Below the pieces are notes generated by a model. That model worked only from the letters and a program-made list of their open reading frames with translations, was not told the origin of the DNA and searched no databases. A DNA stretch of 35,499 nt. Origin: a virus. Its lineage: Duplodnaviria; Heunggongvirae; Uroviricota; Caudoviricetes. A program made the position numbers and the translations under genes. The first letter of the stretch is position 1, and each line of letters opens with the position of its first letter. Positions 9,070-12,149 of this stretch are shown here, one piece after another. The stretch lies in the IMG/VR virus record IMGVR_UViG_2541047894_000004. One strand, written 5' to 3'.

Positions 9070-9756
9070 ATGACCCCAATAAAAATATTTATGACTATTG
9101 CTGATTTCAAACGGCCTAAATTGGAGCTCCCAAACGGGGCAAACAAACTACTACTGCACTCTTGCTGTGCTCCATGTTCCGGTGAAGTGATGGAGGCGCT
9201 TCAGGCCTCGGGAATCGACTATACCATCTTTTTCTACAACCCGAACATTCATCCTCAGAAAGAGTATTTAATTCGTAAGGATGAGAATATTCGCTTTGCT
9301 GAACAACACGGCGTGCCATTTATTGATGCTGATTACGACACAGACAACTGGTTTGAACGTGCCAAAGGAATGGAATGGGAGCCCGAGAGGGGGATCCGTT
9401 GTACCATGTGTTTTGACATGCGTTTTGAGCGGACAGCGCTGTACGCTGCTGAAAATGGTTTCAGTGTGATCAGCAGTTCACTGGGCATTTCACGCTGGAA
9501 AAATATGCAGCAGGTTAACGACTGTGGGCGGCGAGCCGTCGCGCATTATCCGGGCATGGTGTACTGGGATTATAACTGGCGCAAGCAGGGCGGCTCGTCC
9601 CGCATGATTGAAATCAGCAAGCGCGAAAAATTCTATCAGCAGGAATATTGTGGCTGTGTGTATTCTCTGCGCGATACCAATCTACACCGCAAATCTCAGG
9701 GACGCCCTCTTATCAAAATTGGTCAACTCCACTACGGTAAAGAAGAGAAGGAGTGA
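9070..9756 (+). CDS. queH: QueH-like epoxyqueuosine reductase (DUF208 family)
   Basis: [20 protein letters not shown], EPERGxRC and C-terminal YCGC motifs as recalled for QueH/DUF208; own upstream region and downstream terminator. Confidence 0.72.
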
Positions 9757-9788
9757 TTTTATGGAGCACCTTTCTTATTGATTTCATA

Positions 9789-9817
9789 TTGGCGAGGTAG
9801 CGGGAGTTAAGTAAAAT
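9789..9817 (+). promoter_or_regulatory. Putative sigma70 promoter of the hok-like mRNA (TTGGCG-N17-TAAAAT)
   Basis: -35/-10 hexamers with 17-bp spacing about 6 nt upstream of GGGTGCTTGAGGCTATCTGCCTCA, which resembles the 5' end of plasmid R1 hok mRNA. Confidence 0.4.
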
Positions 9818-9884
9818 TGCTGCGGGTGCTTGAGGCTATCTGCCTCAGGCATGAACACCAAAAGGCAGATAGAGAAAAGCCCCA

Positions 9885-9950
9885 GTTAACATTACGCGTC
9901 TCTGCAAGACGCTTAACATTAATCTGAGGCTCAATCTATGCTGAACACAT
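9885..9950 (-). ncRNA. Possible Sok-like antisense RNA overlapping the mok initiation region (approximate)
   Basis: Inferred from hok/sok architecture; candidate minus-strand promoter TTGCCT-N17-TAACCT (rc of plus 9976-9981 and 9953-9958); hairpin GCGTCT/AGACGC at 9902-9918. Confidence 0.25.
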
Positions 9951-10143
9951 GCAGGTTAGCCTCTTACGTGCCGAAAGGCAAGGAGAAGCAGGCTATGAAG
10001 CAGTAAAAGGCGATGTTAATCGCCCTGATCGTCATCGGTTTAACCGTCATAGTGACGGCACTGGTAACGAGGAAAGACCTCTGCGAGGTACGAATCCGAA
10101 CCGGGCAGACGGAGGTCGCTGTCTTCACAGCTTACGAACCTGA
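9949..10143 (+). CDS. mok-like overlapping reading frame
   Basis: 64-aa ORF starting upstream of and overlapping the hok frame, as mok does in hok/sok loci. Confidence 0.4.
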   Translation: MQVSLLRAERQGEAGYEAVKGDVNRPDRHRFNRHSDGTGNEERPLRGTNPNRADGGRCLHSLRT

Positions 10144-10150
10144 GGAGTAA
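9995..10150 (+). pseudogene. hokD: Hok/Gef-family toxin gene (HokD/RelF-like) with an in-frame TAA at codon 4; 45-aa ORF possible from the internal ATG at 10013
   Basis: Reads MKQ*KAMLIALIVIGLTVIVTALVTRKDLCEVRIRTGQTEVAVFTAYEPEE; AGGAG RBS 9 nt before the ATG at 9995; the internal ATG lacks a good SD. Confidence 0.7.
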
Positions 10151-10220
10151 GAGACCGGGCGGGAGAGTAATCTCCCGCCACCTCTGATATGTCAGGCATC
10201 CTCAACGCACCCGCACTTAA

Positions 10221-10240
10221 CCCGCTTCGGCGGGTTTTTT
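10221..10240 (+). terminator. Rho-independent terminator of the hok-like transcript
   Basis: CCCGC-ttcg-GCGGG stem-loop followed by T6. Confidence 0.75.
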
Positions 10241-10358
10241 CACGTACTGTGGTTGTGAATACGATTGGTATTAGGCTATGCTAACAACATTAGCCTGACT
10301 AATTTTGTATTGACTTAATTTTTGTTAAAGAACAGGACGAAGACGTAAGGGTACACCA

Positions 10359-10538
10359 ATGAGCTACGCACTAAAAAAACACCCGCGATTGACTATTCCC
10401 CCTCGCGATAAAAGCGTTGTGGCAGCTCCGCGCCCGGCTATCGATGAAAATTGCACTCATCGTGAGCAGGTGAAAAATGCTTTCGATTTCGGTTTTTCTC
10501 GTTACGAGAAGGCAATGGAAGATCTTTCAAAAGTGTAA
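10359..10538 (+). CDS. Small protein upstream of doc, candidate antitoxin, 59 aa
   Basis: Hand-translated: MSYALKKHPRLTIPPRDKSVVAAPRPAIDENCTHREQVKNAFDFGFSRYEKAMEDLSKV; stop 10-19 nt before the doc start; no family assigned. Confidence 0.5.
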   Translation: MSYALKKHPRLTIPPRDKSVVAAPRPAIDENCTHREQVKNAFDFGFSRYEKAMEDLSKV

Positions 10539-10556
10539 TGATGGGTATTGTGCTCT

Positions 10557-11042
10557 ATGGCTGAGATTGTTGAAGGAGTGCACTACCTTTCGGTTGATGA
10601 TCTTACTGAAATTAATCGCCTTTTAATTGAGCTTCAAACACCAGATGAACCTGTTGGTGTGCTGAGTGTTGATAATTTAAGTTCTTCTCAGTCTCGTCCC
10701 AGTATGGTTCGATGGTATGAGCAAACCAACGACATGTTTGTACTGGCATCGGTATTGATTGAAAGTCTGATTCAGAATCATCCATTTGCCAATGCAAACA
10801 AGCGCACAGCAATGATGGCTGGTGCGGTTTTTTTATTGTTAAATGGATACGAATTAACCGCACCAGGCGATGAAGTTGTGGAGATGGCTGAGGGGCTGGC
10901 CTGTAAAATTTATACACGAGAAGAGCTTGAAAATTGGTTGTGTTATTGGTCTCGTGCGTATGACAGTCGGGAATTATGTAAAACAGGCGCAACTATTGTT
11001 TTGTATGAAACTATCAAGCTTAAAATAGAACAGCAAAACTAA
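10557..11042 (+). CDS. doc: Doc-family toxin (Fic/Doc fold), 161 aa
   Basis: HPFANANKR fits the Doc signature H-x-F-x-(D/N)-(A/G)-N-K-R; small gene immediately upstream; alternative TTG start at 10548. Confidence 0.78.
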   Translation: MAEIVEGVHYLSVDDLTEINRLLIELQTPDEPVGVLSVDNLSSSQSRPSMVRWYEQTNDMFVLASVLIESLIQNHPFANANKRTAMMAGAVFLLLNGYELTAPGDEVVEMAEGLACKIYTREELENWLCYWSRAYDSRELCKTGATIVLYETIKLKIEQQN

Positions 11043-11060
11043 AGATGCTTCTAATGAAAA

Positions 11061-11080
11061 CTCGCTTCGGCGGGTTTTTT
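11061..11080 (+). terminator. Rho-independent terminator after doc
   Basis: CTCGC-ttcg-GCGGG followed by T6; shares the 18-mer cgcttcggcgggtttttt with the hok terminator. Confidence 0.65.
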
Positions 11081-11265
11081 GTTGCGTGCTGAATATGCAG
11101 GGTGAAAAATAACCATATATTTGATTATATACACAGCCAAAAATAAAAGTCATTGTACCTGCACATTAAACAATCAAATATACGACGTGAAATAAATATT
11201 TTTCAGATTAATATTTTTGTCTCTATGTGGATATAACCTTTTGTACTTATAAACCTGGAGGCATC

Positions 11266-11478
11266 GTGGAAAAAATAAAGAAACTATTTAGTAGCAAATA
11301 CGCAGTCATACGTCGTGATGACCTGTCAGTTATAGTCGAAATGGATTACTTCCCTGAAACCCCAAAATCAATGATGTATCGTAATGGTCGAAAGGCAATT
11401 TTTTTACCGATGAGGGTAAGTGACATTATGGGAAATGATAAACTGCTGGATGAATTGCGAGTCAGAGCATCCTGTTAG
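11266..11478 (+). CDS. Hypothetical small protein, about 70 aa, GTG start, in an AT-rich segment
   Basis: GGAGG 4 nt upstream of the GTG at 11266; could be spurious. Confidence 0.3.
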   Translation: MEKIKKLFSSKYAVIRRDDLSVIVEMDYFPETPKSMMYRNGRKAIFLPMRVSDIMGNDKLLDELRVRASC

Positions 11479-11549
11479 TATTGGCATTAATTCTGATATA
11501 CTACATAACGGGCTGAACACCCATTCTACTGCGCCAGCGGAGAACTACG

Positions 11550-12149
11550 ATGGCGCATATACAACTGGTCAAACAAACCTCTTCCGGATTACTTCTCCCG
11601 GCGACGCCGGAGAGTTGCGATTTTCTGCATCAAATCAAAATAGGCGAGTGGATACACGCTGACTTTAAGCGTGTTCGTAACTACGCATTCCACAAGCGTT
11701 TTTTCAAACTCCTGCAACTCGGATTCGATTACTGGACTCCGGTCGGTGGGGCGATCACTCCTCGCGAACGAAAACTGGTGTCCGGTTTCGTTGATTATCT
11801 GTGTGAATCAGTAGGCCGGGAACATACGCCAGCTCTGAGCGAAGCCGCAGAGCAATATCTGAATACAGTTGCGACACGCAGAACCCGAGATACAGCATTG
11901 CTAAAGTCGTTTGAGGCTTTCCGCGAGTGGGTAACCATTCAGGCCGGATTTTACACCGAGCATATTTATCCGGACGGTAGCCGTGGGCGCAGGGCGAAAT
12001 CCATCTCGTTTGCGAATATGGACGAAACCGAGTTTCAGCAGGTTTATAAATCTGTGCTGAATGTACTGTGGAACTGGATTCTGTTCCGTAAATTTTCCTC
12101 TCCGGAACAAGTCGAAAATGTGGCCGCGCAGCTACTGGAGTTTGCGTAA
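11550..12149 (+). CDS. DUF1367-family phage protein (YbcN-like), 199 aa
   Basis: Sits upstream of the DUF1364/Q genes as in DLP12-type nin regions; family assigned from memory. Confidence 0.6.
   Translation: MAHIQLVKQTSSGLLLPATPESCDFLHQIKIGEWIHADFKRVRNYAFHKRFFKLLQLGFDYWTPVGGAITPRERKLVSGFVDYLCESVGREHTPALSEAAEQYLNTVATRRTRDTALLKSFEAFREWVTIQAGFYTEHIYPDGSRGRRAKSISFANMDETEFQQVYKSVLNVLWNWILFRKFSSPEQVENVAAQLLEFA

Follow-up and report, generated by a model that had tools for sequence, protein, structure and literature searches.

The window analysed here, a stretch of 35,499 nucleotides from a member of the Caudoviricetes, contains a gene for a Doc-family toxin that is immediately preceded by a gene of only 59 codons. 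The initial annotation placed this small gene in the position of an antitoxin gene and assigned it to no family. This raises the question whether it is a real gene, whether its product is the antitoxin of Doc, how a Doc module is controlled without an autorepressor and what role the conserved N-terminal peptide of the small protein plays. In the best explanation overall, to which we assign a probability of about three in four, the locus encodes a type II Doc toxin-antitoxin pair in which the antitoxin consists of a neutralisation tail without a head, and the whole unit is a self-contained moron of temperate phages, an accessory cassette that brings its own signals for transcription.

The locus and its boundaries

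At this locus the window is 100% identical to a Rac-like prophage found in E. coli APEC O1. The module is located between replication genes and DUF1367/YbcO/DUF1133 genes, which corresponds to the nin region, and directly downstream of a hok/sok module. This location had been recognised initially, and the Pfam HOK_GEF match, the Rfam sok match and the gene context agree with it. The features of the locus are as follows.

9824..10000, + strand: sok antisense and hok mRNA leader region of the adjacent type I toxin module (match to Rfam RF01794 sok with 118.8 bits, gathering score 59)
10013..10150, + strand: Hok/Gef toxin ORF, 45 aa (Pfam HOK_GEF, E 1.1e-21; PGAP "Hok/Gef family protein")
10223..10240, + strand: exact 18-bp direct repeat CGCTTCGGCGGGTTTTTT, left copy and left cassette boundary (repeat search, hairpin fold, empty-site alignment)
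10241..10358, + strand: 118-nt cassette leader (candidate sigma-70 promoter and Shine-Dalgarno-like AAGGG)
10359..10538, + strand: 59-aa partner gene, proposed head-less antitoxin (ORF, dN/dS, synteny with Doc)
10359..10457, + strand: partner residues 1-33, proline-rich segment (conservation, dN/dS, model, hhalign)
10458..10535, + strand: partner residues 34-59 (HREQVKNAFDFGFSRYEKAMEDLSKV), proposed Doc-neutralising tail, predicted kinked helix (dN/dS, hhalign, model)
10557..11042, + strand: Doc-family toxin gene, 161 aa (Pfam Fic, TIGR01550, phrog_577, predicted fold)
10779..10805, + strand: Doc catalytic motif HPFANANKR, residues 75-83 (read from the sequence)
11056..11085, + strand: intrinsic terminator of the cassette and right boundary, with the right copy of the 18-bp repeat at 11063-11080 (hairpin and U-tract, end of homology, empty site)

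The cassette is a discrete unit of 840 bp (10241-11080). Its flanking direct repeat has two matches in the window and none in 100 shuffles, and the left copy coincides with the U-tract of the hok terminator and the 3' half of its hairpin (10219-10236). The empty site is found as a single contiguous match in 131 E. coli genomes, and homology to more than 40 other prophage contigs stops at 11078-11084. A consensus scan for promoters and terminators gave no entries in the cassette; the hairpin terminators are evident on folding instead. The terminator that the initial annotation had attributed to the module was found in this way: the RNA folds into a hairpin (11056-11079; -14.9 kcal/mol, z -2.45) with a U-tract behind it. 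The cassette is atypical in composition, with a GC content of 0.40-0.43 compared to about 0.50 in the flanks. It is also a discrete insertion that brings a terminator of its own and shows presence/absence polymorphism, and in all of these characteristics it corresponds to a moron. The same pair is present at unrelated sites in different phages: in Pseudomonas phages Sirocco and LPPA56 it adjoins the integrase, in L092 it is flanked by minor-tail genes and in L088 it is next to a baseplate hub. A megablast search of the INPHARED phage collection with the cassette gave no match, and tblastn matched three phages.

The toxin

The downstream gene encodes a Doc protein by sequence, motif and fold, as had been proposed from its HPFANANKR signature. 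It scores 45.3 bits against Pfam Fic PF02661 (cut-off 24) and 120.7 bits against TIGR01550 DOC_P1 (cut-off 38.65), and it belongs to phrog_577, "Doc-like toxin", in PHROGs. The signature matches the Doc-type active-site motif HxFx(D/N)(A/G)NKR, and His75, Phe77, Asn79, Asn81, Lys82 and Arg83 are invariant among 22 Doc homologues. The nearest solved relative is Doc from E. faecalis (9VZC, E 6.4e-14).

For structure prediction with AlphaFold, partner and Doc were modelled as one chain, using the natural in-frame translation with stop codons as X. The model obtained with 34 close homologues was poor (pLDDT 51). With 119 more diverse Doc sequences Doc was predicted confidently, with pLDDT values of 90-98 over its core. 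In Foldseek this model superimposes on P1 Doc (3DD7_A) with a target-normalised TM score of 0.91 and an rmsd of 1.7 Å over 125 columns. A C-terminal extension of about 30 residues carries a conserved WLCYWSRxYDSRxLC motif.

The toxin has already been annotated in public records, and standard pipelines report such loci as orphan Doc toxins, because the partner has no curated family.

The partner is a conserved gene that is strictly paired with Doc

Neither the single sequence nor the profile of the partner has a match in Pfam, NCBIfam, PADLOC or PDB, which bears out the initial view of an unclassified family; the profile search suggested at that time matched Doc to PF02661 and the partner to no antitoxin family. 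The best PDB match, ribosomal protein S25 (E 0.4), is not meaningful. The only family match is phrog_2208, "unknown function", the NCBI label is "hypothetical", and a literature search on protein accessions and the tail motif did not find the partner family described.

Nevertheless, the partner is not a chance ORF, since its median dN/dS is 0.105 in frame, whereas the two alternative frames give values of 1.9 and 2.5. Purifying selection is strongest in the C-terminal part (0.045 for residues 34-59 versus 0.215 for residues 1-33). A Doc gene is located directly downstream in all 111 partner homologues, of which 109 were scored automatically and two had been flagged as "lone" although they also have Doc; the 111 homologues span Gammaproteobacteria and temperate phages. 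Conversely, the partner is present at each of 25 genome loci with this Doc subfamily (Enterobacterales, Pseudomonas, Halomonadaceae and Gilliamella), and it lies immediately upstream of Doc in 80 viral contigs as well. The exact partner sequence occurs on at least 1,000 public contigs. The partner stop codon precedes a conserved motif around residue 7 of Doc by 23-45 nt. Such a small co-oriented gene upstream of the toxin gene in a conserved pair is the arrangement of type II systems.

The ORFs themselves are as initially described, with a gap then given as 10-19 nt: it measures 18 nt to the Doc ATG (the PGAP start, 161 aa) and 9 nt to a TTG at 10548 (164 aa). As both ORFs are in the same frame here, separated by TAA TGA and five codons, a read-through or fusion protein was considered. 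This reading was rejected, as the two genes do not keep a constant relative frame across 67 unique pairs (36 in frame, 27 in +1 and 4 in +2).

An HMM search of 1.84 billion representative proteins returned 36 matches, which are small stand-alone proteins except for one chance hit to a repetitive protein of 1,274 aa. Family members have 38-95 aa; a longer, domain-bearing relative of the partner was not found in this set.

A putative neutralisation tail without a head

Only the last ~20 residues of the partner resemble known proteins. With hhalign they match the tails of MazE/AbrB-type Doc antitoxins (probability 88%, P 3e-6) and, more weakly, those of Phd/YefM-type antitoxins (P 4e-4). The initial impression that the partner is unlike Phd thus applies to the head, as the partner lacks the DNA-binding part of Phd, and does not extend to the tail. 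Across these comparisons the probabilities are 82-88%, i.e. not above 95%, and the similarity spans about 20 residues. Control comparisons (reversed and 30 column-shuffled) reached scores of at most 15.8 and P values not below 0.0095, compared to a score of 28.8 for the real comparison. The matched tails belong to antitoxins with PF04014 or PF02604 heads that are encoded upstream of distant Docs, and when the partner HMM was run against 9,444 ORFs, the best matches outside the family were all such antitoxin tails.

The segment has the form that characterises these tails, a C-terminal amphipathic kinked helix of about 20-26 residues ending in ...RY..A(L/M)..L(A/S)K. In the model, helices are predicted for residues 34-43 and 46-58, with a kink at Phe44-Gly45 that coincides with the boundary of the two tail segments of E. 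faecalis Phd (PMC13034048); the model does not place these helices on Doc with confidence. A C-terminal tail alone is able to bind and inhibit Doc: a peptide of Salmonella Phd residues 52-73 binds Doc with a Kd of 73 pM (PMC9207808), and when fused to SUMO, Phd-C neutralises Doc in vivo (PMC10440598). On the basis of these sequence comparisons, the partner is best described as a putative head-less Doc antitoxin and not as an unrelated protein.

The N-terminal segment is family-specific and proline-rich, with the motif (R)LxIPxRDKSxVAxP(R/K)P, in which at least 90% of 38 diverse members keep Ile13, Pro14 and Arg16. Residues 1-33 show no secondary structure in the model (pLDDT 41-58) and are probably disordered. 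No DNA-binding domain was detected in the partner by Pfam, NCBIfam, PDB or hhalign, and the protein has neither the Phd/YefM fold (PF02604) nor the swapped hairpin of PF04014. A DNA-binding, autorepressing antitoxin, which is typical but not universal for type II systems, is therefore not what the partner resembles. A full-length hhalign comparison had suggested that the N-terminal half is the remnant of an AbrB domain. This was rejected, since the N-terminal half alone has no similarity to the AbrB head (P 0.31); the same holds for the Phd head (P 0.46).

Expression and possible autoregulation

The leader contains a candidate sigma-70 promoter, presumably a weak one, with a -35 element TTGTGA (10253-10258), an 18-nt spacer and a -10 element TATGCT (10277-10282). 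It is absent from the scan list because its score of 8 out of 12 is below the threshold of 9. The pattern TTGT(G/A)A-18 nt-TAT(G/C)CT is kept in both of two otherwise divergent leader variants. A Shine-Dalgarno-like AAGGG is located 9-13 nt ahead of the partner ATG. The operon is probably transcribed from this promoter, and additionally it may be reached by read-through from phage early transcription.

Since the partner has no DNA-binding domain, classical autorepression of the operon by the partner is improbable. An alternative reading is nevertheless a conventional autoregulated pair, in which the basic, proline-rich N-terminus would repress the operon by binding to an operator within the leader. 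This might be achieved, for example, by beta-ribbon pairing in a Doc2:partner2 complex, and Phd from E. faecalis does drive Doc dimerisation (PMC13034048). The N-terminal segment is conserved and under selection. Palindromes upstream of the partner are more common in related loci than expected by chance (11 of 35 groups at P<=0.1), and some overlap strong promoters, as in a Providencia example, TTGACT...TAATGTAGCTTAACTTACATTA...TATAAT; some DNA-binding regulation could exist after all. However, these palindromes are wholly different between lineages while the N-terminal motif is constant, the best inverted repeat in this window does not reach significance (P 0.3), a DNA-binding fold could not be detected and the model shows coil. 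Hence, we consider autoregulation unlikely, although it is the strongest of the alternatives.

Other explanations

A less probable alternative is that the cassette acts during the lytic cycle and does not mainly serve the lysogen for addiction or defence: antiterminated early transcripts would make Doc, which damps host translation, and the partner would time or buffer its action. As the cassette follows a terminator in the early, nin-type region, N-type antitermination would express it, and in other phages it is found inside tail operons. Moreover, the Doc site of EF-Tu is phosphorylated during P1vir infection (PMC13645617). The phage itself, however, needs EF-Tu. In addition, the terminator of its own, the candidate promoter, the low GC content and the indel behaviour are hallmarks of morons and typical of genes expressed in the lysogen, and the position beside int/att in Pseudomonas phages is a classic one for lysogenic conversion.

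That the partner is not an inhibitor but a chaperone, activator or specificity factor of Doc, or an unrelated co-transcribed protein, is very improbable. Its helices are not confidently docked on Doc in the model (pLDDT 47-67 for the helices and 41-67 for the partner as a whole, which had no alignment depth). The homology of its tail to known neutralising tails argues against this reading, as do a gene order and tight spacing that are typical of antitoxin-toxin operons; furthermore, Doc without neutralisation would be lethal, yet the pair is present on at least 1,000 contigs. Finally, a decayed remnant, with genes for a truncated antitoxin and an inactive Doc that are subject to drift in a defective prophage, can practically be dismissed: the host element is Rac-like and probably defective and the antitoxin lacks a head, but selection on the partner is strongly purifying, the 59-aa architecture is kept from Escherichia to Pseudomonas and Halomonas, including isolated viable phages, and the catalytic residues are invariant.

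Proposed mechanism and implications

For the head-less antitoxin cassette we propose the following mechanism. By homology with Doc from P1 and Salmonella, the toxin would phosphorylate EF-Tu at Thr382/383, with the result that translation stops. The largely disordered 59-residue partner would serve as antitoxin. Its C-terminal 26 residues would fold as a kinked helix on Doc and neutralise it in the manner of Phd and MazE-type tails. The N-terminal segment may function as a sensor or degron, or it may contact Doc at a second site. One specific version, which we regard as a tentative suggestion with the odds against it, is that this segment replaces the missing head as a degron or trigger-sensing element that sets the lifetime of the antitoxin. 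If so, the cassette would be a switch without transcriptional regulation, controlled at the protein level only; phage infection or proteolytic stress would free Doc and result in abortive infection or prophage addiction, and the combination of a Phd-C-like tail with a sensor or degron peptide would represent a new antitoxin architecture.

Despite its abundance in public contigs, the partner is labelled as hypothetical and belongs to no curated family. Its assignment as a natural stand-alone tail that would neutralise Doc completes the annotation of a toxin-antitoxin pair that is common in prophages of E. coli, Salmonella, Providencia, Serratia, Yersinia and Pseudomonas aeruginosa. The family also offers a natural test of the concept that antitoxins are exchangeable linear neutralisation motifs with optional heads, and the partner could serve as a minimal natural template for Doc-inhibiting peptides.

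Comparison with known systems

Doc antitoxins with MazE/AbrB heads are known from "mazE-doc" systems, e.g. TasA-TasB (PMC1626090), and from the E. faecalis Phd-Doc pair (9VZC, PMC13034048). The E. faecalis toxin is the closest solved relative of the present Doc. As with the antitoxin genes of these systems, the partner gene is located directly upstream of the toxin gene. The C-terminal ~20 residues of the partner match the MazE-type tails, and residues 34-58 align without gaps to residues 54-78 of EFPhd (PMC13034048), with the predicted kink at the same place. In contrast to these antitoxins, the partner has no PF04014 domain and carries a proline-rich segment of 33 residues instead, and the toxin differs from mazE-doc toxins in its C-terminal extension.

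With Phd-Doc from P1 and Salmonella (3K33, 3DD7; PMC9207808) the locus shares the Doc fold, the kinase motif and the location on a prophage, at a sequence identity of about 20% between the Doc proteins. Phd of these systems neutralises by a C-terminal helix that folds on binding, and the same is proposed for the partner tail. The hot-spot spacing of Salmonella Phd residues 56-70, F-x3-M-x2-H-x3-L-x2-L, is mirrored by Phe42, Phe46, Tyr49, Met53 and Leu56 of the partner (PMC9207808). Unlike Phd, the partner has no PF02604 head, and the similarity between the tails is weak. P1 Phd represses its own operon via conditional cooperativity, a mechanism for which the present locus shows no equivalent.

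A short Doc-neutralising element that is independent of its fusion partner is also known from Panacea-fused Phd-C, and antitoxins consisting of a neutralisation domain only are stated to exist in the paper on that system. In contrast to Phd-C, which is unstable alone, the partner is a natural stand-alone protein with a conserved N-terminal extension.

In YhfG-Fic and VbhA-VbhT, a tiny antitoxin (55-62 aa) without a DNA-binding domain is likewise encoded upstream of a Fic-fold toxin. YhfG and VbhA inhibit by an alpha-inh helix, (S/T)xxxE(G/N), that blocks positioning of the ATP gamma-phosphate. Such a mechanism was rejected for the partner, because the motif is absent by inspection and no Pfam family match was found; in addition, the toxin here is a Doc-type kinase and not an AMPylating Fic protein. 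Overall, the cassette is best read as a modest variation on a well-known type of toxin-antitoxin system, and its new feature is an antitoxin tail without a DNA-binding head.

Genomic setting of the partner–doc pair

The toxin gene doc and the small gene preceding it, whose product is referred to as the partner, are arranged as follows:

10359–10538, same strand as doc: partner ORF, 59 codons
10557–11042, same strand as the partner: doc ORF, 161 codons, starting 18 nt past the partner ORF

The Rac-like prophage of E. coli APEC O1 is 100% identical to this stretch of the window. Its NCBI pipeline annotation names the partner 'hypothetical protein' and Doc 'type II toxin-antitoxin system death-on-curing family toxin'. 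The genes are ordered queH, hok, 59-aa gene, doc, a small hypothetical gene, DUF1367, DUF1364/YbcO, DUF1133, tRNAs and lysis genes. This is a nin-equivalent early region, as proposed in the initial annotation, and the claimed position directly downstream of hok is borne out by a Pfam HOK_GEF match and an Rfam sok model hit of 118.8 bits in the adjoining module. The pair was found in 168 of 5,426 complete E. coli genomes and is chromosomal in all of them.

Just 5' of hok, the prophage early region contains a complete epoxyqueuosine reductase gene, queH (9070–9756; Pfam QueH, E 1.9e-65), which looks like a phage-carried auxiliary tRNA-modification gene. In the sibling prophage of E. coli SJ7 (locus L002, 1811–3305) the slot of queH, upstream of hokD, is occupied by a divergent serine/threonine kinase and PP2C phosphatase gene pair. 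Accessory or defence genes may therefore vary at this position.

In other phages the pair occupies quite different positions, which is the behaviour of a moron. Two isolated Pseudomonas phages, Sirocco (Peduoviridae) and LPPA56, have it after the integrase gene, adjoining the attachment site; in L092 it is flanked by lambda-like minor-tail and tail-assembly genes, and in L088 it lies next to a baseplate hub.

Cassette boundaries and leader

An exact 18-bp direct repeat, CGCTTCGGCGGGTTTTTT, is present at 10223–10240 and 11063–11080 and nowhere else in the window; two matches were reached in 0 of 100 shuffles. The copies belong to the hok and doc terminators, each of which folds as a hairpin followed by a U-tract. 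A consensus terminator scan of 9700–11600 returned no sites. This negative should not be trusted here, since both terminators (10219–10240 and 11056–11080) are clear on folding; they also coincide with homology boundaries. Thus, the module does possess its own terminator at 11056–11080, as had been claimed.

An artificial 'empty site' query, 9950–10240 joined to 11081–11380, gave a single contiguous match of 96–97% identity in 131 E. coli genomes, O157:H7 and O55:H7 strains among them. The junction in STEC308 consists of exactly the left flank, one repeat copy and the right flank. Therefore, the partner–doc unit is a discrete 840-bp indel (10241–11080), comprising a 118-nt leader, two genes and one terminator copy. 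Its GC content is 0.40–0.43 versus about 0.50 in the flanks. Homology to most E. coli-type prophage contigs spans from about 9800 to 11078–11084, which means that the cassette is usually accompanied by hok; in a few contigs the shared part begins only at the partner ATG.

The small ORF that follows the doc terminator and precedes the DUF1367 gene (11227–11478, PGAP start 11266; phrog_1813, unknown function) is a unit separate from the cassette, because it is also present at empty sites. Nowhere else in the region is the DNA as rich in AT as here (GC 0.33–0.36). Near the ORF, a good promoter-like site (ATGACT-18-TATAAT, 10/12) on the minus strand at 11153–11124 points leftwards.

Two divergent leader versions both retain TTGT(G/A)A, 18 nt and TAT(G/C)CT. 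The corresponding -35 (10253–10258) and -10 (10277–10282) elements form a candidate sigma-70 promoter that scores 8/12, just below the threshold of the scan tool. In related loci, inverted repeats occur ahead of the partner start more often than expected by chance (P ≤ 0.1 against shuffles in 11 of 35 sequence groups, about 3.5 expected). Some overlap strong promoters, and they differ completely between lineages; in the window, no significant inverted repeat was found upstream of the partner. Lineage-specific palindromes, located at most 130 nt upstream of the partner start in ten homologous loci (L003, L008, L009, L010, L011, L016, L018, L024, L085 and L092), include GGATGTA..TACATCC, TAATGAAAG..CTTTCATTA, GTTTGACA..TGTCAAAC and ATAGCTTAAGCTAT. 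They could represent operators or hairpins at the mRNA 5' end.

Doc toxin

Assignment of the 161-aa protein to the Doc family, made originally from the motif HPFANANKR, is confirmed by HMM search: both Pfam Fic (45.3 bits, curated threshold 24) and TIGR01550 DOC_P1 (120.7 bits, threshold 38.65) are passed. The motif spans residues 75–83 and its key residues are invariant among 22 homologues. The nearest solved relative is Doc from Enterococcus faecalis (PDB entry 9VZC, E 6.4e-14). In a predicted structure built on 119 homologues the core has a pLDDT of 90–98, and superposition with P1 Doc gives a target-normalised TM-score of 0.91 and an rmsd of 1.7 Å. The protein extends about 30 residues beyond the C-terminus of P1 Doc. 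In this extension (10920–11042, Doc residues ~122–161) a conserved stretch, WLCYWSRxYDSRxLC, precedes a variable predicted helix, which P1 Doc lacks. A contact between the extension and the N-terminal segment of the partner is one possibility. Phosphorylation of EF-Tu Thr382 is established for P1 and Salmonella Doc (PMC9207808, and Castro-Roa et al. 2013 cited therein); by homology, the present Doc would phosphorylate the same residue. A subfamily member from Pseudomonas syringae (protein P0196) is publicly named 'N-acetylglucosamine-6-phosphate deacetylase', evidently an annotation error.

The partner as a real gene paired with Doc

The partner has no match in Pfam, NCBIfam, PADLOC or PDB. 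Its sole database match is PHROG 2208 ('unknown function'), in agreement with its description as a small protein of unclassified family. The exact sequence occurs on at least 1,000 contigs, with public names that are all 'hypothetical' or 'bacteriophage protein'. Nevertheless, the partner is a real gene. Pairwise comparison of 45 unique 59-codon alleles gives a median dN/dS of 0.105 in frame versus 1.9 and 2.5 in the alternative frames; it is 0.215 for codons 1–33 and 0.045 for codons 34–59.

When 1.84 billion representative proteins were searched exhaustively with the partner profile, 36 matches were obtained, 35 of them stand-alone proteins of 38–95 aa; the remaining one, a repetitive 1,274-aa protein, is a chance hit. 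The family is therefore without longer, domain-bearing members. The Doc profile retrieved 25 genome loci (from Providencia, Serratia, Yersinia, Morganella, Xenorhabdus, Citrobacter, Kluyvera, Hafnia, Proteus, Arsenophonus, Gilliamella, Pseudomonas, Stutzerimonas, Halomonas and others). In these, no Doc of the subfamily lacks a partner homologue as its immediate upstream neighbour. Conversely, Doc lies directly downstream of every partner in 80 partner-recovered viral contigs, and of 111/111 partner homologues overall. Two partners flagged as lacking Doc were ORF-calling artefacts. A conserved motif near Doc residue 7 follows the partner stop codon at a distance of 23–45 nt. Both genes share a frame in the window, but a read-through fusion is ruled out because their relative frame varies among loci (36, 27 and 4).

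Similarity of the partner tail to Doc antitoxins

Antitoxins upstream of more distant Docs, in genomes and viral contigs, carry an N-terminal DNA-binding head of the MazE/AbrB (PF04014) or Phd/YefM (PF02604) type. Both types share a similar C-terminal tail, ...(R/K)(Y/R)..A(L/F)..LA(K/E); the partner ends in ...SRYEKAMEDLSKV.

Profile comparisons (hhalign) of the partner family with Doc antitoxins
Whole partner vs 33 MazE-type antitoxins: probability 82–84%, P 1e-5, score 28.8
Controls, reversed and 30 column-shuffled templates: P ≥ 0.0095, score ≤ 15.8
Residues 33–59 vs MazE-type tails: probability 88%, P 3e-6
Residues 33–59 vs Phd-type tails: P 4e-4
Residues 1–32 vs MazE-type: P 0.31
Residues 1–32 vs Phd-type: P 0.46

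The split comparisons place the entire similarity signal in the last ~20 residues of the partner. Hence, the initial impression that the partner is unlike Phd holds for residues 1–32 (P 0.46) but not for the tail (P 4e-4). When the partner HMM was run against the full set of 9,444 ORFs from the loci examined, the best matches outside the family were the C-terminal tails of eight AbrB-type antitoxins (E 1.5e-4 to 0.04), whose genes adjoin distant Docs. By inspection, partner residues 34–58 align without gaps to E. faecalis Phd 54–78 (HQKKLQQMMEN / SKQKHNELYKELVT), the segment seen on Doc in 9VZC (PMC13034048). The hot spots of Salmonella Phd (F56, M60, H63, L67 and L70; PMC9207808) have counterparts in F42, F46, Y49, M53 and L56, with a common spacing of i, i+4, i+7, i+11, i+14. 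The low-confidence AlphaFold model of the partner (pLDDT 41–67) shows coil for residues 1–33 and helices 34–43 and 46–58; the predicted kink at F44–G45 would coincide with the boundary between the two E. faecalis Phd tail peptides. The model resolves no confident interface between partner and Doc.

Residues 1–33 carry the family-wide motif (R)LxIPxRDKSxVAxP(R/K)P and are under purifying selection; I13, P14 and R16 are retained by at least 90% of the 38 diverse members compared. No relatives of this half were detectable. The idea that it derives from the second AbrB hairpin as a remnant failed the split hhalign test. The inhibitory motif (S/T)xxxE(G/N) of the class I Fic antitoxins YhfG/VbhA is absent from the partner.

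In viral contig L147, beside a different distant Doc lineage, the last 52 residues (MQKSAQTMPKYAEKPVVVRAPLEARPQPETDRKALRDVISDRYSKSLEYLAR) of the upstream ORF (1257–1496) likewise have no Pfam head and show a proline-rich segment followed by a comparable tail. Doc antitoxins without a head may thus have more than one origin.

Proposed function and comparison with Phd–Doc

Judged by its sequence, the partner corresponds to the tail of a Doc antitoxin and lacks a head. Most likely, Doc is a translation-blocking kinase and the 59-aa protein its antitoxin, acting via a C-terminal helix that folds onto Doc. A neutralising tail can be sufficient alone, since 22 residues of Salmonella Phd, supplied as a peptide, bind Doc (Kd 73 pM) and inhibit it (PMC9207808), and Phd-C stabilised by SUMO neutralises a Doc in vivo (PMC10440598). 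Antitoxins made of a neutralisation domain only are said to exist (PMC10440598). The cassette would be expressed from a weak constitutive promoter and by phage read-through. It may serve in prophage maintenance, in defence against other phages or during the lytic cycle. Classical Phd–Doc employs autorepression and conditional cooperativity, both of which are unlikely here because the DNA-binding head is missing; the excess of inverted repeats in related loci qualifies this view. The partner probably represents an unannotated antitoxin family, and the module is not a new kind of system. The unusual feature is the head-less form with a conserved N-terminal peptide, fixed in nature and spread through gammaproteobacterial temperate phages.
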